DNA from: a virus
Taxonomy: Duplodnaviria; Heunggongvirae; Uroviricota; Caudoviricetes
IMG/VR virus record: IMGVR_UViG_3300019487_000021
DNA length: 64,000 nucleotides
Direction: 5' to 3' (one strand)
Part shown: positions 6,183-58,744 of the stretch, in pieces
Numbering within the stretch: position 1 is the stretch's first letter
Layout: the number at the start of each line of letters is the position of its first letter
Program-made: the position numbers and the translations under genes
Notes under the pieces: model-generated
Database searches by the model: none
The model's input: only the letters and a program-made list of their open reading frames with translations
Told to the model about the DNA's origin: nothing

Positions 6183-6329
6183 CACTATATGATCAATGGT
6201 AGTCGGCGCTGGAGCGCGGCGGTGTCTTATAAACACTGGAGATCGGCTAGATTGGCTGGAACGGGAGGGATCGTAACCCTCGGCTACTACCAACGAATAT
6301 AGTGATAGAACCATATAATAAGGATATAA

Positions 6330-9024: not shown

Positions 9025-9275
9025 AAATCTTTCAATACACGTACACGGAACCTGAGCTAGTTGAGTTCGCAAATCAAGTTCGTCGGTGTGTTGTTCGTGC
9101 GCTTCAGCACGAACAGGCATTAACGGCAGAACAAGCGACGAATTTTAACGACACGCATATTGTTGTTATAGCGGAACCGTGGCGATGGTTCCCTTGGTTC
9201 AAGAATCGTAAAAAAGGGGTGCGAATGACCGTTGTTAAGCTTCTTGAACGAATCAACGACGAACCGTACGAATGA
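9021..9275 (+). CDS. hypothetical protein
   Basis: ATG with AAGGA RBS; overlaps the previous stop. Confidence 0.4.
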   Translation: MKIFQYTYTEPELVEFANQVRRCVVRALQHEQALTAEQATNFNDTHIVVIAEPWRWFPWFKNRKKGVRMTVVKLLERINDEPYE

Positions 9276-9554
9276 TCACATACAGAATTGTTGCGCATGG
9301 AGTAGAATTACCCTCTATCATGCAAGAACTGTTGTCTTTGTAGAGAACTCTCATATATACTCTTCGAACTGTTGTTGCGTAGTTTTGGGTTACTTCATTT
9401 CCAGAAAACACCTAAAACGTCATTTGACTCAGCGGTCAGATTATAGAAGATTTGTGTGTTGCGTAGTCAAGGGTTACTTCATACTTGATATGGCGGCTCC
9501 CAATGCAGGGAGCCATTTCCCTCAACGAATAAACTCACACGATCGATATGGAAA

Positions 9555-9593
9555 AGCCCTGCTGACGTTTACGACGGCAGGGCTTTTTTTGTT
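9555..9593 (+). terminator. rho-independent terminator upstream of rsr
   Basis: AGCCCTGC...GGCAGGGCT followed by a run of seven T. Confidence 0.6.
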
Positions 9594-9637
9594 TGCAGTA
9601 CCATAATAACTTAACCCTCTCACAAGGAGATGCGAAA

Positions 9638-11370
9638 ATGTCAAAGCTCAACGCTCAGGGCAAGCGCCCAGTAAAGTCTACGTCTAACCATCGTTACGTA
9701 GCACCAGGAGTCCGTCACGTTCCTGTCGAAACTACTCTTGCTATTCCGGTAACGGAAACCGTCAGTGGAACAAAGAACCACTGCAGCACCTGTACGAACT
9801 TGCCGTGTCAACACTACTTGGTAAGGACACGTTCTACCGCACTAGCGACACACTTGTAAAGAATATGAAGACCAAGCTGAATGAAGCCGTTTCCATGGGT
9901 GCGTTTGACTTCGTTGCAAACGTTGCAATCCACGCTCGTGTGCAGATGGGCATCCGCTCACTGCCGATCATGTTGGTTGTCGAATTTGCAAAGATCCTCG
10001 CTGACTATCGTGCTCCGTACACGCAACAGCTGAACGACCTCCGTACACAACTCGCAAAGGCTCGCAGCGTAGCCAAAAAGCTTGAACTTGGTGACGAGAT
10101 TGCTCGTGTTCAGGCAATTGCGGAATCGTTCAACTACGAGAACATGCGCCGTTTGGTGTGTGATGTAATTCAGCGCGCCGACCAGATCACTGACCTCTAC
10201 GCTTATGCCCTTGAAGTGTTCGGTGGTAAGGGCAAGGTGCCGATGGCTGTGAAGCGTGGTGTAGCTGATGCTTTCAACAAGTTCAACGAATATCACTTCG
10301 GCAAGTACGACCGTGCTGGCTCGGTGAAATTCCGTGATGTACTGCGCATTGTTCATCCAACAGCTAAAAACGAGAAGCAAGGCGTGTTGTTTGAAAAGAT
10401 CATGAAGGAAACTCTAGCTACTCCGTACACTTGGGAAACCGAGCTTTCGAAGAATGGCCAGCTTCCGAAGGAAGAACGCCGTTCCGAGGCTCAAGTGTGG
10501 ACAGACTTGCTGGAGTCAGGCAAGCTTGGTTACATGGCTCTTCGTTCGAACGTTCGTAATATCATCAAGGCTGGTGTTGATGATGAAGTGATCGGTGTAT
10601 ACGTTGCAAGTGTGTTGGCTGATCCGAAGCGAGTTGTAGAAAGCAAGCAGTTCCCATTCAGCTTCATCCAGGCCCGCAATGCGATCCAGGAGGTTGGTGG
10701 TAACACGAAGATCCGTAACGCACTGGACAAGGCACTTGAGCTTTCATGCCGCAACATCCCAATGTTGGGCAAGAAGCTTGCTCTGATCATCGACAAGTCG
10801 GGATCGATGGTACAAGGCGTTTCAACGATGCCAGGCTTCACTCCGTTCGACCAGGCTGTAACACTAGCTGCAATGGTCGTAAAGGCACATGCAGATGCTG
10901 ATGACCTTGCCGTAATCGTGTTTGGTTCGGCCGCCGAAACACTAACAGACATCAACCCGAATGACAGCATCAACTCAATCGCGAACCGTATTCGCCAGTC
11001 AAAGGCTGGCGGTGGTACTCAATTCGATGTTGCGTTGCACGCGTTGAACCAGCTGGGATTCAAACCAGATGCCGTGCTTGTTATGACGGACGGTGAAATC
11101 AACAAGCTGTGGATCCAAGGCACGCGCCAGCTGGCTAGCATTCCATCGAGCACGTTGAAAGTTGTTGTCAACTTCCAGGCAGCAAACACAACTCCATTCC
11201 CAATCCGTGAAGGTTGGTATCCGATTGCAGGTTGGTCGGACAAGGTGTTCAAGTGGATTCCTGCGATCCACCAGAAAGTGACAGTTGTGGATGCGCTGTG
11301 TGCTCCATATGCGGGTGCAGAAGCAATGAAGGCTGCAATTCGCGCTGAAGCTGAAGAAACAGAAGAGTAA
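9638..11370 (+). CDS. rsr: Ro60/Rsr orthologue (TROVE plus vWA domains) with an apparent -1 frameshift near 9770-9800
   Basis: KFRDVLRIVHPTAKN matches the Ro60 motif SHKDLLRLSHLKPSS. vWA MIDAS LALIIDKSGSM...GGGTQ. RBS AAGGAG at ATG 9638 (frame 2); the body is in frame 1 from 9688 and has no ATG of its own. Confidence 0.7.
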
Positions 11371-14423: not shown

Positions 14424-15290
14424 ATGAATTACAAACTCTCTTTTGTAGCAATCGTTGCAGCGTTTGCCACAACTGCTGTTTCTGCCGCTGACATCAATTG
14501 TAACGGTGGCTTCAGTGCAAACTGCAACAACAGCAACTTTGGTACAACTAACCAAGGCGGTCAAGGCGGTCAAGGCGGTCAAGGCGGTCAAGGCGGTCAA
14601 GGCGGTGTTGGAGTTGGGGTCGGGATTGGCAAGGGCGGTAACGTCGACAACAATATCGGAAACGGTATTGGCAACTTTTCGTCTTCTGCAAAGATCGAGC
14701 GTGGTGCAGTCGATGTTGACGTCGACAACACCAACGTCAACGTAAATGCCAACACAAACAAGCAAAAGCAAGGTCAGCTGCAAGGTCAGATTCAAGGTCA
14801 AGGACAGAAGCAAAAAGCTGAAGCTAACAACGAAGGCAACACTCAGGAAGTGAACCAGAACTACGAAGCACAAGCTCGTAACCCTGTGGCAACTGCCTAC
14901 GCTGCCCCGCTTGTTGCATCACCTGACACTTGTATGGGTTCAACCAGCGTTGGTGGTCAAGGGATTACGTTTGGTCTGTCAGTCGCTACTACATGGACGG
15001 ACGACAATTGCGTACGCCTGAAAAACAGCCGTGAGCTGCGTGCTTCGAACAAGCATGTTGCTGCTGATGCCCTGCTGTGCATGAACAGCGACGTTCGTGA
15101 AGCCATGAAGGTTGCTGGTACACCGTGCCCACAAGACACTGCTCCGAAGGCTGCAACTGGTCCTGCTCCTGTCAAGACCGTGTCTGATGACACCGTCCGA
15201 GCTGGTGGAACGATCAAGGCTCTGCCGCAAACTGCTCCGGTGAAGAGCCCTGCATTTCAGCCAGCTCTGAGCCGTCCAGGCCGTTCGTAA
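14424..15290 (+). CDS. secreted low-complexity Gly/Gln/Asn-rich protein
   Basis: Signal peptide; QGG repeats. Confidence 0.55.
   Translation: MNYKLSFVAIVAAFATTAVSAADINCNGGFSANCNNSNFGTTNQGGQGGQGGQGGQGGQGGVGVGVGIGKGGNVDNNIGNGIGNFSSSAKIERGAVDVDVDNTNVNVNANTNKQKQGQLQGQIQGQGQKQKAEANNEGNTQEVNQNYEAQARNPVATAYAAPLVASPDTCMGSTSVGGQGITFGLSVATTWTDDNCVRLKNSRELRASNKHVAADALLCMNSDVREAMKVAGTPCPQDTAPKAATGPAPVKTVSDDTVRAGGTIKALPQTAPVKSPAFQPALSRPGRS
14553..14606 (+). repeat. tandem repeat (CAAGGCGGT)x6 encoding QGG repeats
   Basis: Read directly. Confidence 0.85.
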
Positions 15291-26383: not shown

Positions 26384-26518
26384 TGGATCGTGAAGATTTC
26401 AATTGGAGACATCAAAGGTTCGCTACCATTATTCAATAGATGGTACAGAGGGCACTTACCCTTCAATTAAGAGTATCATTCACATGTTCGAAGAACACAA
26501 AAATAAGGAGAACAACAA

Positions 26519-26670
26519 TGGAAATAGCACCGATTGACCAAACATGGGATCAATGGTATCTCGTTGGTGGCGTCAAAGTCAATCCTGCCGACATGGATGC
26601 GATGAGGAAGATTGCTGCCGTTGCTGTACGTTGTATGGAGACTTATGGACCACTTCGCCGCAAGGTATAG
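26519..26670 (+). CDS. small hypothetical protein sharing its first 12 codons and RBS with the dCMP deaminase
   Basis: Start region duplicated (see repeat 26500/26895). Confidence 0.4.
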
Positions 26671-26673
26671 TCA

Positions 26674-26928
26674 ATGCCCAAACGTATCCCAATCAAAGCA
26701 GCAAAAGATGTAGCAAAACAATACGATTTATTACAGGTAATACTGCTAGCTTGGGATGGAGAGCAGACGCACGTTGTAACATACGGTACAACGTTGAAGG
26801 ATTGTGGACAGGCTGCTATTGGTGGCAATAAAATAAAACGCTGGATGAACTGGCCAGAGGAACTGTGTCAGACAAAACCAGCAAGAATAAGAAAAAAGGA
26901 GAACAACAATGGAAATAGCACCGATTGA
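26674..26928 (+). CDS. hypothetical protein
   Basis: ORF with AAGGTA RBS. Confidence 0.35.
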   Translation: MPKRIPIKAAKDVAKQYDLLQVILLAWDGEQTHVVTYGTTLKDCGQAAIGGNKIKRWMNWPEELCQTKPARIRKKENNNGNSTD

Positions 26929-27370
26929 CCAAATATGGGATCAATGGTATCTTGGTCTCGCAAAATATGTCTCAACAAAGTCAAAAGATCCATCAACAAA
27001 AACAGGAGCAGTGATCGTCCGTCCTGATAAGAGTTTGTGTTCAGTTGGCTTCAACGGTTTCCCTCAGAAGATGCCTGATCTTCCTGAGCTGTATGCTAAT
27101 AGAGAAGAGAAATATTCGAGGATCATCCATTGTGAGATGAACGCTTTGCTGTTTTCAAGAGATCAAACACTTGAAGATTACACACTTTACACATATCCTT
27201 TTATGAGTTGCGATCGTTGCTTCGAGCACATGGTTCAGAAGGGGATTATACGGTTCGTATATCCAAAGGCAACACCAGACCAACTGACACGATGGGGAGA
27301 CACTTTCGAACGCGTCCTCAGGTATGCTGAAGAGACTGGTGTTGAGATGGTTGAGTTAGAGATGGAGTAA
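26909..27370 (+). CDS. dCMP deaminase (zinc-dependent cytidine/deoxycytidylate deaminase)
   Basis: HCEMNAL and SCDRC zinc ligands; RBS AAGGAG. Confidence 0.8.
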   Translation: MEIAPIDQIWDQWYLGLAKYVSTKSKDPSTKTGAVIVRPDKSLCSVGFNGFPQKMPDLPELYANREEKYSRIIHCEMNALLFSRDQTLEDYTLYTYPFMSCDRCFEHMVQKGIIRFVYPKATPDQLTRWGDTFERVLRYAEETGVEMVELEME

Positions 27371-34644: not shown

Positions 34645-36153
34645 ATGTTTGGAATGAATTCCATAGTGGGTAAGAAATACTTCAAAGACGCACCGAAGGA
34701 TAGTCTGTTAGTCACATCTCGTTTTTTCACAATTCAAGGCGAGGGAATTTACCGCGGAATGCCGAGCTACTTCGTACGTTTAGCGAAATGCAATCTCGCA
34801 TGTTCATTCTGTTTTGTTGGCAACACAGAAATAGCAATGTCAAATAAACCACGCAAGAAAATCAAAGATGTCGTCGTTGGAGATGTTGTTGTCGCATATG
34901 ACGAAACAACTGGAACATTCGAGCCAGGAACCGTGTCACGTTTGTACCAATCTCAAACAGACGAACTCGTGTATATTCGCACAGCAACGGATCGAATCTA
35001 CTGCACGCCTGAACATCCGTTTTACGTTCGTGGTAAGGGTTGGATTAAAGCAATTGATTTACAACCGAGCGATGTTCTTCTACAAGCAGAATTTATTCAT
35101 AACGGTGAAATGGTCCATACCGTTGAGCGAATAGTGAAAGGCTCGGCTGCTTGGGTGCAACTTGCAGGATCAAAAGATGCTGCCTGTACAGTTTATAATT
35201 TTGAAGTTGATAAGTACCACAGCTATGTAGCGAACGGAAAGGTTGTACACAACTGCGACACGTACTTCGACTCTGGTGAGTATCAAACATACGACCAGAT
35301 CTTTGCCGACTGTGACAAAGAGATCGAAGCCTTCTATGCAAGGCGTAACATGAAAGTTCCAGCGTGGGCAAAGCATTGTGACGGATATTGGGAACCTACA
35401 GGAATAGATAATGCAATTGGCACTCCTCCAGAGGAATGGGTCGCTGAATCGAAACGTAAGGTTGTCCTAGTAATCACAGGCGGTGAACCAACACTTCAAA
35501 CGAACCTCACCGAATTCCTCGAACGAGCAAATAAGATTTTCTTTCACACACAAATCGAGAGTAACGGAACAGATCCTTTAACGTTACCAGATGCAACCAC
35601 GCTTGTGTGTTCACCAAAGTGTCTCGAGAAGAAGCAAGGCATGCAGAAAATCCCCGTGACGGCCTACTTCAGCGGCAACGATGAGCGTGGAGAAGGGATG
35701 TCAGGCCGGCCCTCATACGTTACGTACCACGAAGAGCCACGATACGTTGCCGTTCGATATCTTGAACCAAAGAAAGAGATGCTTGAACGTGCTGACTGTT
35801 TGAAGTTTGTTATGTGTGCTCCTGACGATGACCAAAGCCAGTTCACGCCATACAGTGAAGTTCCTCAGTGGGCACATGACTGGGCTGCAAACACTGGCAA
35901 GCCTGTGTTCGTATCGCCGATGAACATCTACCTGCAAGAGCCACAAAAGGCTAAGAACCTTCGTGCGCAAAAGCAGAGTGGTGAAATCACAATCGAAGAA
36001 CGGTCGACGGTCGACGAAGTCATTTCGTGGTGGGAAAACGATCTCCTTGATATGAAAAAGAATCACCGCAATCATGAATACGCAGCTGAATACTGCATGA
36101 GGCATGGATTTATCTTTCAAGTTCAACTACATTTGTTTGCGAGTCTTGCCTAA
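34645..36153 (+). CDS. queE: 7-carboxy-7-deazaguanine synthase QueE (radical SAM) interrupted by a mini-intein
   Basis: FTIQGEG, CNLACSF[intein]CDTYF, VLVITGGEPTL. Splicing would restore CNLACSFC (CxxxCxxC). Confidence 0.8.
   Translation: MFGMNSIVGKKYFKDAPKDSLLVTSRFFTIQGEGIYRGMPSYFVRLAKCNLACSFCFVGNTEIAMSNKPRKKIKDVVVGDVVVAYDETTGTFEPGTVSRLYQSQTDELVYIRTATDRIYCTPEHPFYVRGKGWIKAIDLQPSDVLLQAEFIHNGEMVHTVERIVKGSAAWVQLAGSKDAACTVYNFEVDKYHSYVANGKVVHNCDTYFDSGEYQTYDQIFADCDKEIEAFYARRNMKVPAWAKHCDGYWEPTGIDNAIGTPPEEWVAESKRKVVLVITGGEPTLQTNLTEFLERANKIFFHTQIESNGTDPLTLPDATTLVCSPKCLEKKQGMQKIPVTAYFSGNDERGEGMSGRPSYVTYHEEPRYVAVRYLEPKKEMLERADCLKFVMCAPDDDQSQFTPYSEVPQWAHDWAANTGKPVFVSPMNIYLQEPQKAKNLRAQKQSGEITIEERSTVDEVISWWENDLLDMKKNHRNHEYAAEYCMRHGFIFQVQLHLFASLA
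34810..35253 (+). mobile_element. mini-intein (148 aa, no endonuclease domain) in QueE
   Basis: Begins with Cys, block B TPEHPF, ends VVHN followed by a +1 Cys. Confidence 0.75.
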
Positions 36154-51781: not shown

Positions 51782-52244
51782 TGGAGATGTTACGCATTTT
51801 TGAAGCAAGCATGTTTGTCAAGGGCACAAACTGTGCAAATTGTAAGTACGGTGACACAGATCGATCTAAGCCTCTTGCGAAGGAAGAACAGAACGGTCAA
51901 GGCGGTTTAGATCCCACTGGAAAAGATCTTACTCTAGCTGAGAAAGGTGACTTGATTACGCTTCCTGGCAAATCAACAGCTACAAAGAAATTCCCATGCA
52001 CACACTCTGAGATCAAACAGGACGTCACAGAACGTATGTGTTGTGCTTATTGGGATGCTGACGGGTCCATTAGAGCATGGAAGTAAGCAAATAAAACACT
52101 TTCTAGTGGCTGTTAAGACGGTTTTTCGTGTACAACGTCCCTTTTACTGACCGTTAAACAATTCTGTTGATTTTCGAAATGAAACCATATATAGTGTACA
52201 AGTTGTTTTTGAAATCGTGGTTCGATTCCAAGAAACGACACGAT

Positions 52245-52323
52245 GCGATTGTAGCTCAGCGCCAGAGCGCCCCGCCTTCGCCGGAGGGGAGGCCGTGTGG
52301 TTTAAGTCCCGCCAATCGCTCCA
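52245..52323 (+). ncRNA. tRNA-like RNA: perfect tRNA 5' half and acceptor 3' strand plus CCA, but no canonical T-arm
   Basis: GCGATTG-TA-GCTC-AGCGCCA-GAGC, then CCCCGCC-TTCG-CCGGAGGGG helix, then CAATCGC-T-CCA. Upstream at 52214-52232 is a T-loop-like GGTTCGATTCC. Confidence 0.45.
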
Positions 52324-52328
52324 ATTTT

Positions 52329-52378
52329 GCTGCTTCGGTTTCGAAGCAGCCTACGGTGGAACAGGTGCGCCTGTTCCC
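52329..52378 (+). promoter_or_regulatory. two perfect hairpins immediately 3' of the tRNA-like RNA
   Basis: GCTGCTTCG-gtt-CGAAGCAGC and GGAACAGG-tgcg-CCTGTTCC. Confidence 0.6.
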
Positions 52379-52396
52379 TACTCAAAGGAGATAAAG

Positions 52397-52468
52397 ATGT
52401 TTGCAGTCATTACGATCAATGCGACAACCAATGCGGTGAAAAATCCGCAGGGGGGACTTGCGTCGTAG
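52397..52468 (+). CDS. 23-codon micro-ORF (MFAVITINATTNAVKNPQGGLAS)
   Basis: RBS AAGGAG seven nt upstream; followed by a terminator. Confidence 0.35.
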   Translation: MFAVITINATTNAVKNPQGGLAS

Positions 52469-52489
52469 GCTAACAAAGGTAAACGACAA

Positions 52490-52526
52490 AAGCTCTCCTG
52501 GGAAACCTTGAGAGCTTTTTTCTTTT
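52490..52526 (+). terminator. rho-independent terminator
   Basis: AAGCTCTC...GAGAGCTT followed by TTTTTCTTTT. Confidence 0.6.
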
Positions 52527-52555: not shown

Positions 52556-52975
52556 ATGGGACGACGAGCACTACCACCAGAAGAGAGACGAAAACGGATT
52601 GTAGCCTACACAAATAAGTGGGCAAAGAACAATCCCGAGAAAGTCAAGAAGCATCGACAAAGTCCGATGCGAGCTCGCATCGGTGGTATACGAAGTCGTG
52701 CAAAGCGTAAAGGATTAGAGTTTGATTTAACGGAGAAATTTTTAATTGAGTTGTCGGAACGAACATTGATATGTCCCCTAACAGACATTCCTCTTCGGTA
52801 CGACAATCAAAATCGTCTTGCAGATGATCACGCTGAATTGGATCGAAAAGATAACACGAAAGGCTACATCAAGGATAATGTGTGGTTCATAAGCAAGCGT
52901 GCTAATCGGATCAAAACAGACTCGACACCTGACGAGATGATTCAAGTAGCACAACGATTGAAGCAACTTTTATAA
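52556..52975 (+). CDS. HNH-family endonuclease-like protein
   Basis: RBS GGAGAAG; ICPLTDIPL...HAELDRKDNTKGYIKDNVWFISKRANRIK. Confidence 0.5.
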   Translation: MGRRALPPEERRKRIVAYTNKWAKNNPEKVKKHRQSPMRARIGGIRSRAKRKGLEFDLTEKFLIELSERTLICPLTDIPLRYDNQNRLADDHAELDRKDNTKGYIKDNVWFISKRANRIKTDSTPDEMIQVAQRLKQLL

Positions 52976-53069: not shown

Positions 53070-53141
53070 GGGTTCATGATGTAACGGCTAGCATAGGAGG
53101 CTTTTACCCTCTCTGTCAGAGTTCGAATCTCTGTGAACCTA
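53070..53141 (+). tRNA. tRNA-Lys (anticodon UUU)
   Basis: Acceptor GGGTTCA/TGAACCT, D-arm ATGT..GCAT, anticodon arm GGAGG-CTTTTAC-CCTCT, T-arm CAGAG-TTCGAAT-CTCTG. Confidence 0.8.
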
Positions 53142-53487
53142 CTTAGGATTTTACAGAATGACAAGTTTACTTGGTTCCACGACTAACCAAACATTAAACT
53201 GTCTTAGCCTTAGCAACCAAGTCACATGCGGCACAGCCGCCCCCCAGAAGGTCAAGTTACTTGGTGGACCAAATCGATGTTGTAATCGATGTATTATTAC
53301 CTTGTGCATAGTCGGTGACGTAATAGAAGCGCCATATTGACCACCCAAGTGACCACCCAAGGTATGATGGTCGAGCGGAAGGTGAAGATAATCAGCGAGA
53401 TCTGCTGCGAAGTCACCGAGACTATCCAAATCACCTAGGTCGTTTGTAATTTCGAAAAGTTTCATGTAGTTATTTAGTGTTCTTTGT

Positions 53488-53550
53488 TCCGGGAGAGGCG
53501 TCGTGGTGACAGCCGCGATGACGGTGGTTCAAATCCAGCCGCCAGGACCA
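53488..53550 (+). pseudogene. degenerate tRNA paralogue (cannot form an acceptor stem)
   Basis: Shares GGGAGAGGCG with the adjacent tRNA-Asn and has the T-loop-like GGTGGTTCAAATCCAGCC, but no complementary 3' acceptor strand. Confidence 0.45.
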
Positions 53551-53552
53551 AT

Positions 53553-53630
53553 TGTGGGAGAGGCGCCAGGGTGGCAACCGCTCCGCTGTTAACGGAGACT
53601 AGACAGGTTCGATTCCTGTTCCCACAGCCA
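53553..53630 (+). tRNA. tRNA-Asn (anticodon GUU), irregular D region
   Basis: Acceptor TGTGGGA/TCCCACA, anticodon arm CTCCG-CTGTTAA-CGGAG, T-arm ACAGG-TTCGATT-CCTGT, G plus CCA. Confidence 0.65.
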
Positions 53631-53812
53631 TATTTTATGGCTCCTAATTTCAATAGGAGCCATATTGGAGTACGAAGACAGGTCGAAAACGAAAGTATCA
53701 TGGGAATATTTATAAGAGCCTATGCTCGCGGCCCATTGATACTTCGCGTTGTGGTTGCCGACTGCAGGTTTGTTCACATTCATGAGTGGCTCCTTGAAGA
53801 ACGCACCTTACC

Positions 53813-54052
53813 CTAGTTATCTTGATTTGGCAACTTGAATGAGATATCGTATGATGCAAACGAAGCACGAATCCGCTCCAGCGCCTCGGAGGGCCAGTCT
53901 TTTGTTGCTTGTTCCAAAGCGATGGCTAGCCGGGCTAACTTAAGCCCACTGCACCTTGCTTTCTCTATCTCGTTTTGAATGCAATTCGGATGGTTGCACT
54001 CACGGATATTGTTGACGGCAGTAGCGATCAGCACGTCGAACCATCTTTCCAT
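53813..54052 (-). CDS. small hypothetical protein
   Basis: Minus-strand ATG preceded by GGGAGGTGTCG. Confidence 0.45.
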   Translation of the reverse strand: MERWFDVLIATAVNNIRECNHPNCIQNEIEKARCSGLKLARLAIALEQATKDWPSEALERIRASFASYDISFKLPNQDN

Positions 54053-54087
54053 CGACACCTCCCGCGGAAACCCACGAGAGGTATTTA

Positions 54088-54180
54088 GGGTTATTCTTCG
54101 GAATCGCGATAAAGAGCATCGAACGTTTTGTCGTCGAACGTTTAATCAGGTTGATCAGGGTTCGAGTCCCTGGCGACCCA
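54088..54180 (+). ncRNA. tRNA-like remnant (T-arm plus acceptor-like 3' end; 5' part does not fold)
   Basis: CAGGG-TTCGAGT-CCCTG then GCGACCC-A. Candidate 5' strand GGGTTAT lies 93 nt upstream. Internal direct repeats CGAACGTTT x2 and ATCAGG x2. Confidence 0.3.
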
Positions 54181-54279
54181 CAACTCGAGGAGATGCAATA
54201 AATAATGATATGATACTCCAAGAAATTTTCCAACAAATCAGTGATGTGTGGGCTAATTGGAAACGTAAGTGTCCGTTTT

Positions 54280-54351
54280 GCTCCAACGGCGCAGAGGAAG
54301 CGCACTCGCTTGGTAAGCGAGCGGTCCTAAGTTCGAGTCTTAGTTGGAGCA
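54280..54351 (+). tRNA. tRNA-Thr (anticodon GGU)
   Basis: GCTCCAA/TTGGAGC, D GCGC..GCGC, CTCGC-TTGGTAA-GCGAG, CTAAG-TTCGAGT-CTTAG. Confidence 0.75.
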
Positions 54352-54445
54352 CATACAATGCTTGGATAGTTCAGTCTGCTTTACTGCCCCCTGGGTTTGG
54401 TTGGATTGATACGTTTTTCACCTCACCCGCGGAGCAAAGATTTAT

Positions 54446-54522
54446 CCTAGAGTAGTTCAGCCTGGCAGAACGCTCGCCCGATTAGCGAGATGTCGGTGGT
54501 TCAAATCCATCCTCTAGGACCA
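54446..54522 (+). tRNA. tRNA with anticodon loop CCGAUUA (GAU/Ile if canonical positions; C33 unusual)
   Basis: CCTAGAG/CTCTAGG, D GTTC..GAAC, CTCGC-CCGATTA-GCGAG, GGTGG-TTCAAAT-CCATC, A plus CCA. Confidence 0.6.
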
Positions 54523-54531
54523 AGATTCAAT

Positions 54532-54604
54532 TGTTCCGTATTTTAATTGGCAGACTGCATGCTTGATAGGCGTGTCGGTGTAGGTTCGAGTCCTACCGGA
54601 ACAA
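54532..54604 (+). tRNA. tRNA, anticodon loop UUGAUAG (GAU/Ile?), irregular D-arm
   Basis: TGTTCCG/CGGAACA, CATGC-TTGATAG-GCGTG, GTAGG-TTCGAGT-CCTAC. Confidence 0.5.
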
Positions 54605-54722
54605 CATAAATACAAGTTTATGGTAGTGAAAATTTTGTAAAGGAAATTCTCAAGATGTTTGGATGGACACTACAGGTGGTCCGAGATCACGAAGCTCGGC
54701 ATCGGCAAGAACATCCACCAAC

Positions 54723-54796
54723 GGACCGCAAGCATTAAGGTGATGCAGTAGGCTCTTAACCTACAGAACACGGGCCAGTACCGTGGCGGTCTACCA
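54723..54796 (+). tRNA. tRNA-Lys (anticodon CUU) with a non-canonical T-loop GCCAGUA
   Basis: GGACCGC/GCGGTCT, D GCAT..ATGC, GTAGG-CTCTTAA-CCTAC, CACGG-GCCAGTA-CCGTG, A plus CCA. Confidence 0.6.
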
Positions 54797-54804
54797 AAAT
54801 TCTT

Positions 54805-54879
54805 GCTTCGTAAACTTTGACGGTGAAGCCCACTCCTGTAAAGTGGCGGAAGTAGGTTCGAATCCTACACGGAGCTCCA
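54805..54879 (+). tRNA. tRNA-Thr (anticodon UGU; C33)
   Basis: GCTTCGT/ACGGAGC, CCACT-CCTGTAA-AGTGG, GTAGG-TTCGAAT-CCTAC, T plus CCA. Confidence 0.6.
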
Positions 54880-54979
54880 AGTTGTTGCGAAGGACACTAC
54901 GGTTACTTCATTCACTTTGCGTAATGGCTGGAGGCGGAAGCCTCCGTTTCCGTATCCGACTTTTAACTCAACTTTGATT

Positions 54980-55057
54980 GGGGCATTAGCTCAGCTTTGG
55001 GAGAGCGCTACGTTTGCACCGTAGAGGTCGTCGGTTCGATCCCGACATGCTCCACCA
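54980..55057 (+). tRNA. tRNA-Ala (anticodon UGC)
   Basis: GGGGCAT/ATGCTCC, D GCTC..GAGC, CTACG-TTTGCAC-CGTAG, GTCGG-TTCGATC-CCGAC, A plus CCA. Confidence 0.8.
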
Positions 55058-55572
55058 ATCTAAACAAGGAGACGACCATGCTTAAGGAAGGAGTTTGCAG
55101 CAATTTGTGACTAACACAGATGAATCTGGTCGTTTCATGTGATGTTGGACGAAGTAACTATGTGTGGGATAATGTTTCATTTTGGAGAATGAACCATGTA
55201 TAACCAATGTGTATCATTGCTTTTGTGCTTGTTCGGTTCATCAGTAGCACGCTATTGCTGTGTCACTGGATGACAGAGAAAGGATGGCTTAAACCATCGT
55301 AACATCTCAACGAACTGGTCGTAGATAGTCGTAGATACTCGTAGATACTCAATTCGTAAAAGTGAAGCCTGGATCTTTCTCGACAAGAAAGACACGGGCT
55401 ACATCTTTTGTGACGAGACGGACAACTTCCCACGAGCGCTTGTGGTTGATCTTGCCCACACTCTGTTTCACATGATACGAAAGGATAATCGTTTCAATGA
55501 ACCTGATGATGTTTTGAGAGCACTTGCTCGTGCTCGTTTGCAAGATCAAGCTGTAAACATCATCGACAATTT

Positions 55573-55646
55573 GCTCCCATAGTTCAGTGGTAGAATGCGA
55601 TCTTGGTAGGATTGAGACACAGGTTTGATTCCTGTTAGGAGCACCA
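55573..55646 (+). tRNA. tRNA-Thr (anticodon GGU), second copy
   Basis: GCTCCCA/TAGGAGC (one mismatch), CGATC-TTGGTAG-GATTG, ACAGG-TTTGATT-CCTGT, A plus CCA. Confidence 0.6.
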
Positions 55647-55810
55647 TGAAAGTAATCGAGCCAGGCCACGTGTATGAACTCCAACACCTTGAGAGTGAAG
55701 GCGTTGAACGTTTGACGTTTATCAAACGATCGTCAGGTGCAGTTGACTATGGCGATCAAGAAGTGAATACGAAATTGAACTTCTTCCGACTGGTCGGGAC
55801 GGACATGTGA
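55646..55810 (+). CDS. small hypothetical protein (54 aa)
   Basis: ATG overlaps the tRNA CCA end; RBS AGGAG lies inside the tRNA 3' end. Confidence 0.35.
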   Translation: MKVIEPGHVYELQHLESEGVERLTFIKRSSGAVDYGDQEVNTKLNFFRLVGTDM

Positions 55811-55814
55811 TTGT

Positions 55815-56030
55815 ATGACACTCAAAGAAAAGATTGCAATGTACGAGGGGCTGCTTCACGACATCCAAATGTATCGTGAGGTTACGCTTGACGGCGAGAA
55901 AGTGAAACAGCTGCTCGATAACATTGGCGCTTGGAGTTACGCGCATCGTGTTGGCAATGGAATGCTAACAGATCGCCAACAGAAGCGGTTGATTACTGCT
56001 AAGTTCAAAAAGTTGCGAGAAGTGACCTAA
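55815..56030 (+). CDS. hypothetical protein
   Basis: ORF. Confidence 0.4.
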   Translation: MTLKEKIAMYEGLLHDIQMYREVTLDGEKVKQLLDNIGAWSYAHRVGNGMLTDRQQKRLITAKFKKLREVT

Positions 56031-56059
56031 GTGATTTTTCCACGATAGAGGTATCGAAA

Positions 56060-56410
56060 ATGGCAAAGTTTAACCGCAGTAAGATTCAGGTGTATCAGTA
56101 TGATCATCTTTCAACATCAGATTTTGAGAGCATCTCTCTGGATGATATGATCGCAAAGTTGCAGAAGCTTCGCGATAGGCATGGCGGCGAAGGTAGGTTC
56201 AATCTTGAGATTGAGTATTACGACAACACCGACGTCAAAATTGAGGTGTCATCCTATCGAGAAGAAACAGACGAGGAACTCTTGCATCGCGTGACGGTGC
56301 ACAAGGCTTTAGAAAAGCACAAGCGTGATGATGCGAAGGCGCGTAAGGCCTTCCGTGAGGAACACGATCGTAAGGAATTTGAGCGTCTTTCGAAGAAGTT
56401 CGGAAAATAA
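56060..56410 (+). CDS. hypothetical protein
   Basis: RBS GAGGTATCGAAA. Confidence 0.45.
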   Translation: MAKFNRSKIQVYQYDHLSTSDFESISLDDMIAKLQKLRDRHGGEGRFNLEIEYYDNTDVKIEVSSYREETDEELLHRVTVHKALEKHKRDDAKARKAFREEHDRKEFERLSKKFGK

Positions 56411-56415
56411 TTAAC

Positions 56416-56489
56416 GGGTCTGTGATGTAATGGTAGCCTGCGGCTCTTACAAGGCTGATGCGACAGTTCGATTCTGTCCGGACCTACCA
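56416..56489 (+). tRNA. tRNA-Val (anticodon UAC), irregular D-arm
   Basis: GGGTCTG/CGGACCT (two GU pairs), CGGCT-CTTACAA-GGCTG, GACAG-TTCGATT-CTGTC, A plus CCA. Confidence 0.5.
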
Positions 56490-56499
56490 TGGAGGTTGT

Positions 56500-56652
56500 A
56501 TGCGCGATGACCGAGACTTTCCTTTGCTACTCACTTGCTGGGATCTGAATCAGCAGCGCGAAGTAGATTACGTGCCGTACATACGGTGGTGTTCCCACAT
56601 CATTCTCTTTGTCGGCAACCAGTGGTACCGTCTGGACAAATCTGCTCTGTAG
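56500..56652 (+). CDS. small hypothetical protein
   Basis: RBS GGAGG. Confidence 0.35.
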   Translation: MRDDRDFPLLLTCWDLNQQREVDYVPYIRWCSHIILFVGNQWYRLDKSAL

Positions 56653-56653
56653 T

Positions 56654-56727
56654 GCCCCTTTAGTTTAGTGGTAGAACACAACTCTCGTAAAGTTGGGACG
56701 TCAGTTCGATTCTGACATGGGGCTCCA
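56654..56727 (+). tRNA. tRNA-Thr (anticodon CGU)
   Basis: GCCCCTT/ATGGGGC (one mismatch), GTTT..GAAC, CAACT-CTCGTAA-AGTTG, GTCAG-TTCGATT-CTGAC, T plus CCA. Confidence 0.65.
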
Positions 56728-57995: not shown

Positions 57996-58744
57996 ACATA
58001 ACGTACGCTTTACAGCCTCTACCAAAGTCAATCTTCTTGGCAGGTCCGACGCCGAGAAGTGAAGATATTACTTCATGGCGTCCTATAATCTTCATCTTCG
58101 GCGGCGTTGCCAACGCAGGTGTCGAGGGAACGTCGTACTTCAAATGTTAGAGCGAGACGGGGCTAAAAATGAAAGAGATGTGGCTAAATGAAAGAGATGT
58201 GGGAAATCTTAGTGCCGACGCTTCACGCAAACGGGAAGCCGATTAAGACCCGCTATCACAAAGTGTGGGATAAGAAAGTGATTGAGATCACTGGCGGTCT
58301 CACTGTGTTAACAGTTGAGGAGCCTGACCTGTGAAGCGTGTGACATTTGCAAAGAACGGCCCAGGAGTAGTCTTTCATGTATGGGAAGTGGATAATGAAA
58401 GACCAACTGTCTGGCGAGATGGTGATCGGTACCACTTCAACTCAGAATTGATAGGCGTGTACAACTTTACTCATAGAGACCTTGCCGGCTTGTTACAAGG
58501 GGTTAAATGATCGTTCCCGAACGAGCACTTGTTCAAGTGGTCAGCAGCATTCATCAGTAGCTCGGCAGTAGAGCAGGAACTTAATTTATGACGAATCGTG
58601 AACGGATTATAATTTCATGTACTATGTTGTGGTCTTTTCACAACAGCATTGGTATAAAAACATGAAGTTCGTATCGATTCAGATCATTCAACGTCGGTCT
58701 GCTAAGCCTCCTGATGTGCCGGTTGAAATCATCAAGGGGTGATA

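Follow-up and report, generated by a model that had tools for sequence, protein, structure and literature searches.

What is encoded at the upstream edge of the transfer RNA (tRNA) island carried by the Caudoviricetes virus record IMGVR_UViG_3300019487_000021? The stretch analysed here, 64,000 nucleotides (nt) long and hereafter called the window, is part of the genome of an uncultured jumbo phage, whose host is probably an alphaproteobacterium. The element in question lies immediately 5' of the island, with an HNH endonuclease gene between the two. It is a small promoter-to-terminator cassette, in which a tRNA-like gene, two perfect hairpins, a 23-codon open reading frame (ORF) and an intrinsic terminator follow each other. 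As a tentative answer, its distal part may well be an attenuator sensing tRNA supply, placed before the mobile HNH gene and the tRNA island. This reading is proposed because of the codon statistics of the ORF, the presence of an alternative helix involving the terminator, and a geometry typical of leader-peptide attenuators. The features on which it depends are the following.

52385–52390, + strand: Shine–Dalgarno sequence AAGGAG, identified in the sequence, with 6/6 matches and ideal spacing, 6 nt 5' of the ATG.
52397–52468, + strand: 23-codon ORF with its own Shine–Dalgarno sequence and ATG, encoding the peptide MFAVITINATTNAVKNPQGGLAS.
52444–52459, + strand: candidate antiterminator 5' strand UCCGCAGGGGGGACUU, within ORF codons 16–21, pairing with 52490–52503.
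52488–52525, + strand: intrinsic terminator with a 10-base-pair (bp) stem and an inner 2-bp extension, followed by UUUUUUCUUUU (hairpin of -17 kcal/mol).
52556–52975, + strand: free-standing HNH homing endonuclease gene of 139 amino acids (phrog_3322, E = 5e-29; gene calls).
53070–56727, + strand: tRNA island, with genes for Lys(UUU), Asn(GUU), Thr(GGU), Ile(GAU) twice, Thr(UGU), Ala(UGC), Thr(GGU), Val(UAC) and Thr(CGU).

The codon content of the ORF is unusual in this genome. Codons 3–16 specify only Ala, Val, Ile, Thr, Asn and Lys, which is the exact amino-acid set of the ten island tRNAs. Under strict wobble rules, 13 of 14 consecutive codons are cognate to island anticodons, GUC being the sole exception, and the Thr codons ACG, ACA and ACC correspond to the island Thr anticodons CGU, UGU and GGU. 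For comparison, the cognate fraction is 28.4% over 43 long ORFs (11,182 codons), with a maximum of 11/14 in any 14-codon window, and the probability of finding at least 13/14 cognate codons is 8e-7 per position. The segment AVITINATTNAVKN is also the longest non-repetitive run of the island amino-acid set in all six frames. Translation of the ORF is predicted from its Shine–Dalgarno sequence and ATG; gene callers call nothing at the element.

The second line of evidence comes from the terminator and its surroundings. It begins 20 nt after the stop codon of the ORF, and no other strong intrinsic terminator is present on the plus strand between 50 and 58.5 kb. The end of the ORF (52444–52459) is able to pair with the 5' arm of the terminator (52490–52503) through a 14-bp helix of -18.8 kcal/mol according to RNAduplex, versus -17 kcal/mol for the terminator hairpin itself. 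An equally good upstream complement is found in about 0.3% of shuffled or genomic 88-nt segments (p ~0.003), and the upstream complements of the five other plus-strand terminators of the window reach only -7 to -13 kcal/mol. In folds of the nascent RNA, before the 3' arm of the terminator has been made, the antiterminator is the minimum free energy (MFE) structure both without a ribosome and with a ribosome stalled in the control codons, whereas a ribosome at the stop codon leaves the 5' arm of the terminator free. The whole 331-nt stretch is far more structured than its shuffled counterparts (z = -4.7). The original prediction made for this locus had listed a micro-ORF with a good ribosome-binding site and a closing terminator, and both are found here at the coordinates given above.

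These observations suggest how the mini-ORF and the terminator could function together as a ribosome-mediated attenuator, the ORF being spelled in the codons of the island's own tRNAs. When the corresponding aminoacyl-tRNAs are plentiful, the ribosome would reach the stop codon (52466–52468) and cover 52444–52459, which would let the terminator form. When they are scarce, the ribosome would stall upstream and 52444–52459 would be free to pair with the 5' arm of the terminator. The antiterminated RNA polymerase would then continue into the HNH gene, the tRNA-Lys gene and possibly the remaining island. A more specific version of this scheme, possible but rather doubtful, makes the mini-ORF and terminator a demand sensor of the phage's own island: a shortage, for example when a host anticodon nuclease cuts tRNAs, would stall the ribosome, open the terminator and yield more replacement tRNAs, with the glycine-identity tRNA-like RNA of the same transcript serving as a non-decoding decoy or a processing handle. 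Both the attenuation and the regulated target are inferred here from the codon statistics and the alternative helix.

Several points weigh against an attenuator. The codon argument is post hoc, as it arose after the peptide had been seen, and the four related phage loci examined contain neither a comparable leader nor an analogous run of island-cognate amino acids. For the non-coding parts of the element (leader, hairpins or tRNA-like gene), no homologue could be found in INPHARED, IMG/VR, metagenome contigs, species-representative genomes or the related phage loci, and hence neither conservation nor covariation comes to its support. Full-length equilibrium folds always keep the terminator (-36.7 versus -30.1 kcal/mol), and no antiterminator appears by equilibrium folding with a masked ribosome footprint, the competing helix being seen only by duplex and nascent-RNA folding. 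The 1:2 hairpin is a weak 5-bp structure at 52432–52449; ribosome-free RNA is therefore also predicted to read through, unlike what happens in classical attenuators. The putative promoter of the cassette matches the consensus at 9/12 positions only. As to the target, three minus-strand ORFs (53151–54058) and further promoter-like sites split the island, so that at most the HNH gene and the tRNA-Lys gene are clearly co-transcribed or in the read-through path. The earlier suggestion of a leader or attenuator for the peptide gains, as a hypothesis, real in silico support from codon content, alternative helix and geometry.

The searches for relatives were negative at several levels. With INPHARED, megablast and blastn revealed no close relative, and the window as a whole is without any nucleotide match there. 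IMG/VR scans with four DNA patterns and one protein-based pattern returned chance matches only (L014 and L074, both in coding sequence), and the metagenome scan returned 59 chance matches, mostly to one gut bacterial coding gene. Two other contigs are base-identical over the lengths compared (501 nt for L001, 3,420 nt for L114). The Rfam scores obtained for Thr_leader (16.8 bits, for a threshold of 55) and ctRNA_p42d (26.1 bits) correspond to matches with the terminator hairpin only. Synteny was followed through the 102-amino-acid gene upstream, whose nearest homologue is 56% identical; the loci concerned hold other tRNAs and nothing like the element. Some tRNA genes of the related phages are peculiar in their own right: two phages (L002, 1616–1693 and 14535–14713; L005, 2315–2392 and 4080–4163) carry 78-nt 'tRNA-Leu' genes lacking a long variable arm, together with tRNA-Thr, tRNA-Cys and tRNA-Asn genes that have long variable arms, and CCA is encoded in all of them.

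Synteny through the HNH gene led to unrelated contexts only, with homologues at most 46% identical. Because these homologues are only distant and found in unrelated contexts, the gene looks like a mobile or later arrival, and it is probably an insertion between the terminator and the tRNA-Lys gene. Before this insertion, the tRNA-Lys gene would have followed directly after the terminator.

The proximal part of the cassette raises a different question, namely whether it encodes a tRNA. It comprises four consecutive features.

52245–52323, + strand: non-canonical tRNA(-like) gene whose CCA is encoded and whose acceptor end is of the glycine type (RF00005, 39.1 bits).
52324–52328, + strand: single-stranded linker AUUUU directly after the CCA, recognized from sequence only.
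52329–52350, + strand: perfect 9-bp hairpin GCUGCUUCG-GUUU-CGAAGCAGC, without a U tract (hairpin scan).
52358–52377, + strand: perfect 8-bp hairpin GGAACAGG-UGCG-CCUGUUCC, without a U tract (hairpin scan).

In a local Infernal/Rfam scan, RF00005 matches 52245–52320 with 39.1 bits, for a gathering threshold of 29 (E = 1.9e-6). The gene is missed both by ARAGORN with default settings and by the whole-window Rfam gathering scan with its filters; at 90% stringency (-ps90), ARAGORN calls it Glu(UUC), with one C.A mismatch. The acceptor stem (GCGAUUG/CAAUCGC) is complete with 7/7 bp, as is the D stem with 4/4 bp, and U73-CCA is encoded, in full agreement with the initial description. This description had also stated that the T arm was missing, which is wrong: both Infernal and RNAalifold, the latter run against a natural tRNA-Ile family, recognize a T arm, GUG(U)GG-UUUAAGU-CCCGC, in which 5/5 pairs form under a 7-nt loop and one U is bulged. 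All 16 pairs of the acceptor, D and T stems are intact. The RNA is indeed derived from a tRNA, as had been proposed, but it corresponds to a complete cloverleaf gene and not to a 5' half only.

Two regions depart from the canonical tRNA. At the elbow, the D loop AGCGCCA and the T loop UUUAAGU do not provide the G19-C56 pair. The anticodon arm CCCCGCCUUCGCCGGAGGGG has 20 nt instead of the usual 17, with C33 replacing U33, and it does not form a standard 5-bp stem with a 7-nt loop; a mismatch or a bulge, together with C at position 33, is found in every register. Aligned with the tRNA-Ile family, GCC occupies the anticodon position in a loop UCGCCGG, with a G.G mismatch in the stem and three extra C residues after position 26. 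The MFE structure (-30.0 kcal/mol) is a long central helix capped by a GCC triloop, in which the extra C residues pair with G residues of the variable loop, whereas a cloverleaf with a 4+2-bp anticodon stem amounts to -27.6 kcal/mol. The central helix formerly described as replacing the anticodon and T arms is real but ambiguous. The stability of the tRNA-like RNA alone is not unusual (z = -0.8).

Several of these peculiarities are also encountered in other genes called as tRNAs. A scan of species-representative genomes with the 18-nt D arm gave 39 matches, 14 of which are apparently tRNA-Ile(GAU) genes from metagenome-assembled genomes (MAGs) of Alphaproteobacteria, labelled Rhodopila, Acetobacteraceae, Rhodospirillales or just Alphaproteobacteria/Proteobacteria. 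Default ARAGORN calls all six that were examined, and Rfam gives 47–63 bits for three of them. Their T stem contains a bulge, mostly a C, which is a U in L111 and lies opposite an A in L098. When the element is aligned with this family by RNAalifold, the T arm takes the form (((.((.......)).))) and the element keeps the five pairs, two of them through two-sided changes. The MAG family (L082–L113) deserves mention for itself, as a conserved stand-alone gene without G19 and with a bulged T stem, which is an unusual and evidently functional architecture. C19 is found in these alphaproteobacterial tRNA-Ile genes, and U56 occurs at 55573 in the same phage as well as in the tRNA-Gly(GCC) and tRNA-Lys of the related locus L013. 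Since they are shared with other genes called as tRNAs, C19, U56 and the T-stem bulge are best seen as natural variants, not as defects, and can occur in real tRNAs. The anticodon arm alone is truly aberrant.

The acceptor end gives a clue about identity. Bacterial tRNA-Gly identity involves U73, G1-C72, C2-G71, C35 and C36, the combination of U73 and G71 being reported as specific to tRNA-Gly (PMC9976931). The element carries G1-C72, C2-G71, G3-C70 and U73, which is the bacterial glycine set; all acceptor-end elements are present, and C35 and C36 are present only when the GCC at the tip of the helix is counted as the anticodon. The tRNA-Gly(GCC) of locus L013 likewise has GCG...CGC-U-CCA ends and a UUU T loop. 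A recent duplication of another tRNA was considered and ruled out, since the identity of the gene with the tRNAs of the window and of the related loci nowhere exceeds 63%. Simple neutral decay looks unlikely because the 16/16 stem pairs are intact, and decoding looks unlikely because of C33 and the lack of a regular 7-nt loop. Taken together, these two arguments point to a tRNA derivative of the glycine type, probably processed as tRNAs are and probably unable to decode; its anticodon and variable region would have been turned into a GC-rich helix tipped by GCC. RNase P would cut at 52244/52245, and the 3' cut would fall in the AUUUU linker, a putative processing site of the RNase E type.

Once the tRNA-like RNA has been cut out in this way, the message downstream would begin with a structured 5' end made of the two perfect hairpins. 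These had been correctly predicted, with stems of 9 and 8 bp. Another hairpin, a perfect one of 11 bp, is located directly 3' of the tRNA-Asn gene (53636–53664), and hairpins after tRNA genes therefore recur in the island.

Upstream of the tRNA-like gene, two further features complete the cassette.

52167–52195, + strand: putative sigma-70-type promoter TTGATT-17 nt-TATAGT (consensus scan, 9/12 matches).
52202–52239, + strand: imperfect, palindromic 5' hairpin of about 15 bp, containing a T-loop-like 11-mer (fold).

The transcript is predicted to start near 52202, and transcription may also enter the element from upstream genes. The 5' hairpin, which starts at the predicted transcript start, can be drawn as a 'minihelix' consisting of an acceptor stem and a T arm, without D or anticodon arms. 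It contains the 11-mer GGTTCGATTCC at 52219–52229, the T-loop-like sequence noticed in the original prediction and taken there as reminiscent of a permuted tRNA. The sequence was confirmed and a permuted tRNA is not supported: the downstream gene has its own T arm, and because this gene is complete, it leaves no missing half for the 11-mer to supply. Over the window, 11 copies of the motif GGTTCRANYCC are present for 0.38 expected, and three of those in the island region (52219, 53526 and 54159) are outside tRNA genes. The copy at 53526 falls within 53514–53551, an 87% copy of the 3' part of the tRNA-Ile gene at 54446. The upstream 11-mer is best read as tRNA debris or as part of the 5' hairpin. 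The copy at 54159 belongs to a stray T arm (54150–54180), and further isolated pieces are a stray D arm (58557–58574) and a weak tRNA-Arg(UCU)-like sequence with a shortened D arm at 1640–1707 (25 bits, inside a mechanical ORF).

How far can the same data be explained without any sensing? The cassette could consist of ordinary, unlinked island furniture: a tRNA paralogue that is decaying or no longer functional, intergenic hairpins of a generic kind, a very small ORF, translated or untranslated, without a sensing role, and a terminator that ends the unit and insulates a toxic homing endonuclease gene from upstream transcription. This is a real possibility, to be held with some reserve. It accords with the tRNA debris just described throughout the island (53514–53551, 54159, 58557 and 1640), and with the abundance of perfect hairpins in this genome (42 matches, about 29 distinct, versus about 6 matches in shuffles). 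T4 homing endonuclease genes are known to be restrained by RNA structures sequestering the ribosome-binding site (PMC2330249). The lack of conservation of the leader and the equilibrium folds, in which the terminator always wins, go in the same direction. However, in a pseudogene decaying neutrally, the loss of U33 and the gain of 3 nt should be accompanied by broken stems, while all stem pairs are kept here, and the apparent defects (C19, U56 and the T-stem bulge) are encountered in working tRNAs. The 13/14 codon match and the 14-bp competing helix are also each improbable by chance. Alternatively, the tRNA-like RNA could be functional in decoding, as a tRNA-Gly(GCC) or a tRNA-Glu(UUC) whose anticodon and T stems have unusual bulges, possibly an anticodon-loop variant kept against host anticodon nucleases; this is unlikely. 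In the ARAGORN drawing at -ps90, the stem does count 5 bp with a single C.A mismatch, under a 7-nt loop (CCUUCGC), and C35 and C36 are found in the loop UCGCCGG obtained in the glycine register. C33 is shared with two island tRNAs (54446, CCGAUUA; 54805, CCUGUAA), and nuclease evasion has been proposed for phage tRNAs with anticodon-loop changes (PMC10264068). Either register nevertheless requires a mismatch or a 3-nt bulge and both are devoid of U33; in the MFE structure the loop shrinks to the GCC triloop, with the variable loop incorporated into the helix. The score of the gene is moreover below those of all clearly canonical island tRNAs (45–64 bits).

More exotic architectures fare less well. 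A permuted or split tRNA, a tmRNA-like hybrid, or an 83-codon gene (52217–52468) spanning the whole element is hardly tenable, even if the T-loop-like motif lies upstream and the frame of the mini-ORF is open back to a GTG at 52217. The mini-ORF has its own Shine–Dalgarno sequence and ATG. The permuted tRNA was discarded on account of the complete contiguous cloverleaf of the downstream gene, with its own T arm and 3' acceptor strand. The tmRNA, standard or permuted, was discarded in view of this contiguous cloverleaf and of the ORF having its own start, and none was found by ARAGORN in the window. The 83-codon gene was discarded as well, with no call by the gene callers and no PHROGs match. 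A Y-RNA-like decoy, which the original prediction had put forward, is very improbable, as is a YrlA-type partner or decoy of the phage Ro60/TROVE protein. The phage does encode a TROVE-VWA protein (9639–11370), and YrlA RNAs mimic tRNA and occur in phages (PMC4201824). YrlA genes, however, adjoin the Ro60 gene, whereas the TROVE gene is 42 kb away here; the YrlA order of T arm, closed acceptor stem-loop and D arm is not seen, the arms of the element following each other as in an ordinary tRNA. A Ro-binding helix between the ends of the RNA is absent, as is the GNCGAAN0-1G motif on the plus strand, and Rfam gives no match to Y RNA or YrlA even at E <= 10. The TROVE gene also has an upstream non-coding region of its own, with repeats and a terminator. 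This region (9270–9600, 5' of the gene start at 9639) contains a direct repeat TGTTGCGTAGT..GGGTTACTTCAT at 9373 and 9457, ends with a strong terminator at about 9556–9592 and has no Rfam match; it is a candidate for the real Y RNA(s) of the phage.

The genomic setting provides some further observations. Stretches identical to parts of the window are found on metagenome contigs of 100–352 kb, the longest one with the HNH gene being 352 kb. The proteins encoded in the window include, besides Ro60/TROVE-VWA, an enzyme of the CCA-adding/poly(A)-polymerase family, a T4-type RNA ligase 1 and QueE, the best matches of the latter being mainly in phages of Alphaproteobacteria. QueE (34645–36153) has 502 amino acids and its phage homologues align as two pieces covering about 71%; residues 56–269 match Vibrio phage proteins annotated as helicases, which suggests that the middle part is an intein or an inserted domain. 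Within the island, small ORFs and tRNA fragments are scattered among the ten tRNAs. Two of these have C33 in place of the near-universal U, namely Ile(GAU) at 54446–54519, which also has U37, and Thr(UGU) at 54805–54876, which ARAGORN misses and which has a score of 35 bits; each of the two has a canonical paralogue, and they may be nuclease-escape variants. Elsewhere, ARAGORN calls a 95-nt tRNA-Ile(UAU) at 6198–6292, with no Rfam report even at E <= 1; this call may be false, or correspond to a tRNA with an insertion. A 9-nt tandem repeat CAAGGCGGT in about 7 copies (14544–14615) encodes KAV repeats, and a 61-nt segment covering two gene starts is duplicated at 97% identity (26501–26561 and 26892–26952).

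The reasons for which phages carry tRNA genes, and the means by which they control these genes, have been under debate for decades, and recent work links phage tRNAs to escape from host defences that cut tRNAs. To our knowledge, a leader peptide that reads out tRNAs encoded behind its own terminator has not been described for tRNA genes. If the proposal is true, the attenuator would be a known mechanism newly applied to viral tRNA genes, with a simple and directly testable link from tRNA depletion to phage gene expression. The tRNA-like RNA is a candidate for a non-decoding tRNA mimic, possibly accepting glycine. If neither idea holds, the locus is ordinary tRNA-island debris beside a homing endonuclease.

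Comparison with known systems helps to situate each part of the cassette. The closest parallel for its surroundings is provided by tRNA clusters of the T4 type, which have an endonuclease gene within the cluster, tRNA fragments and duplications around it, and a recurring GGTTCRANTCC motif (PMC2330249, PMC13096335). The T4 enzyme SegB, a homing endonuclease of such a cluster, recognises exactly the T-loop motif and drives rearrangement of tRNA segments (PMC2330249, PMC13096335). The phage enzyme is in contrast of the HNH and not the GIY-YIG type, and the T loop of the adjacent tRNA-like gene (GGTTTAAGTCC) deviates from the SegB-type motif. YrlA and other bacterial Y RNAs are likewise tRNA-derived RNAs that do not decode, known in phages encoding Ro60 (PMC4201824). 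The element differs from them by its arm order, by the absence of the Ro-binding helix and of the motif, and by its distance from the Ro60 gene. With the tRNA-Ile(GAU) of alphaproteobacterial MAGs, it shares an identical 18-nt D arm (AGCGCCA loop, with one G) and a pyrimidine bulge after the third T-stem pair; those tRNAs have a 5-bp anticodon stem, a loop UUGAUAA, C56 and an Ile-type acceptor, whereas the arm of the element has 20 nt, its position 56 is a U and its acceptor is of the Gly type. The non-proteinogenic tRNA-Gly of Staphylococcus feed FemXAB and are kept out of translation by altered D-loop and T-arm features. Such alterations and a glycine-type identity, seen at the acceptor end of the phage RNA, are common to both, but the staphylococcal tRNAs keep a normal anticodon arm and have a known function in the cell wall, and nothing ties the phage RNA to such a pathway.

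For the mini-ORF and terminator, the natural reference is the set of enterobacterial leader-peptide attenuators (thrL, ilvL, hisL, trpL and pheL, as well as pheM for pheST). The likeness is found in the short ORF, the strong Shine–Dalgarno sequence, the dense control codons, the terminator about 20 nt past the stop codon and the alternative helix using its 5' arm. The phage element differs in being viral, in matching no Rfam leader family, in having no convincing 1:2 anti-antiterminator, and in lying upstream of tRNA genes and a homing endonuclease gene instead of biosynthetic or synthetase genes; its control codons cover six amino acids that match the island tRNAs. In purpose, the proposed attenuator would also resemble T-box riboswitches, in which tRNA supply sets the choice between terminator and antiterminator. 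The T-box binds uncharged tRNA directly and needs no translation, whereas sensing in the phage would pass through the translating ribosome.

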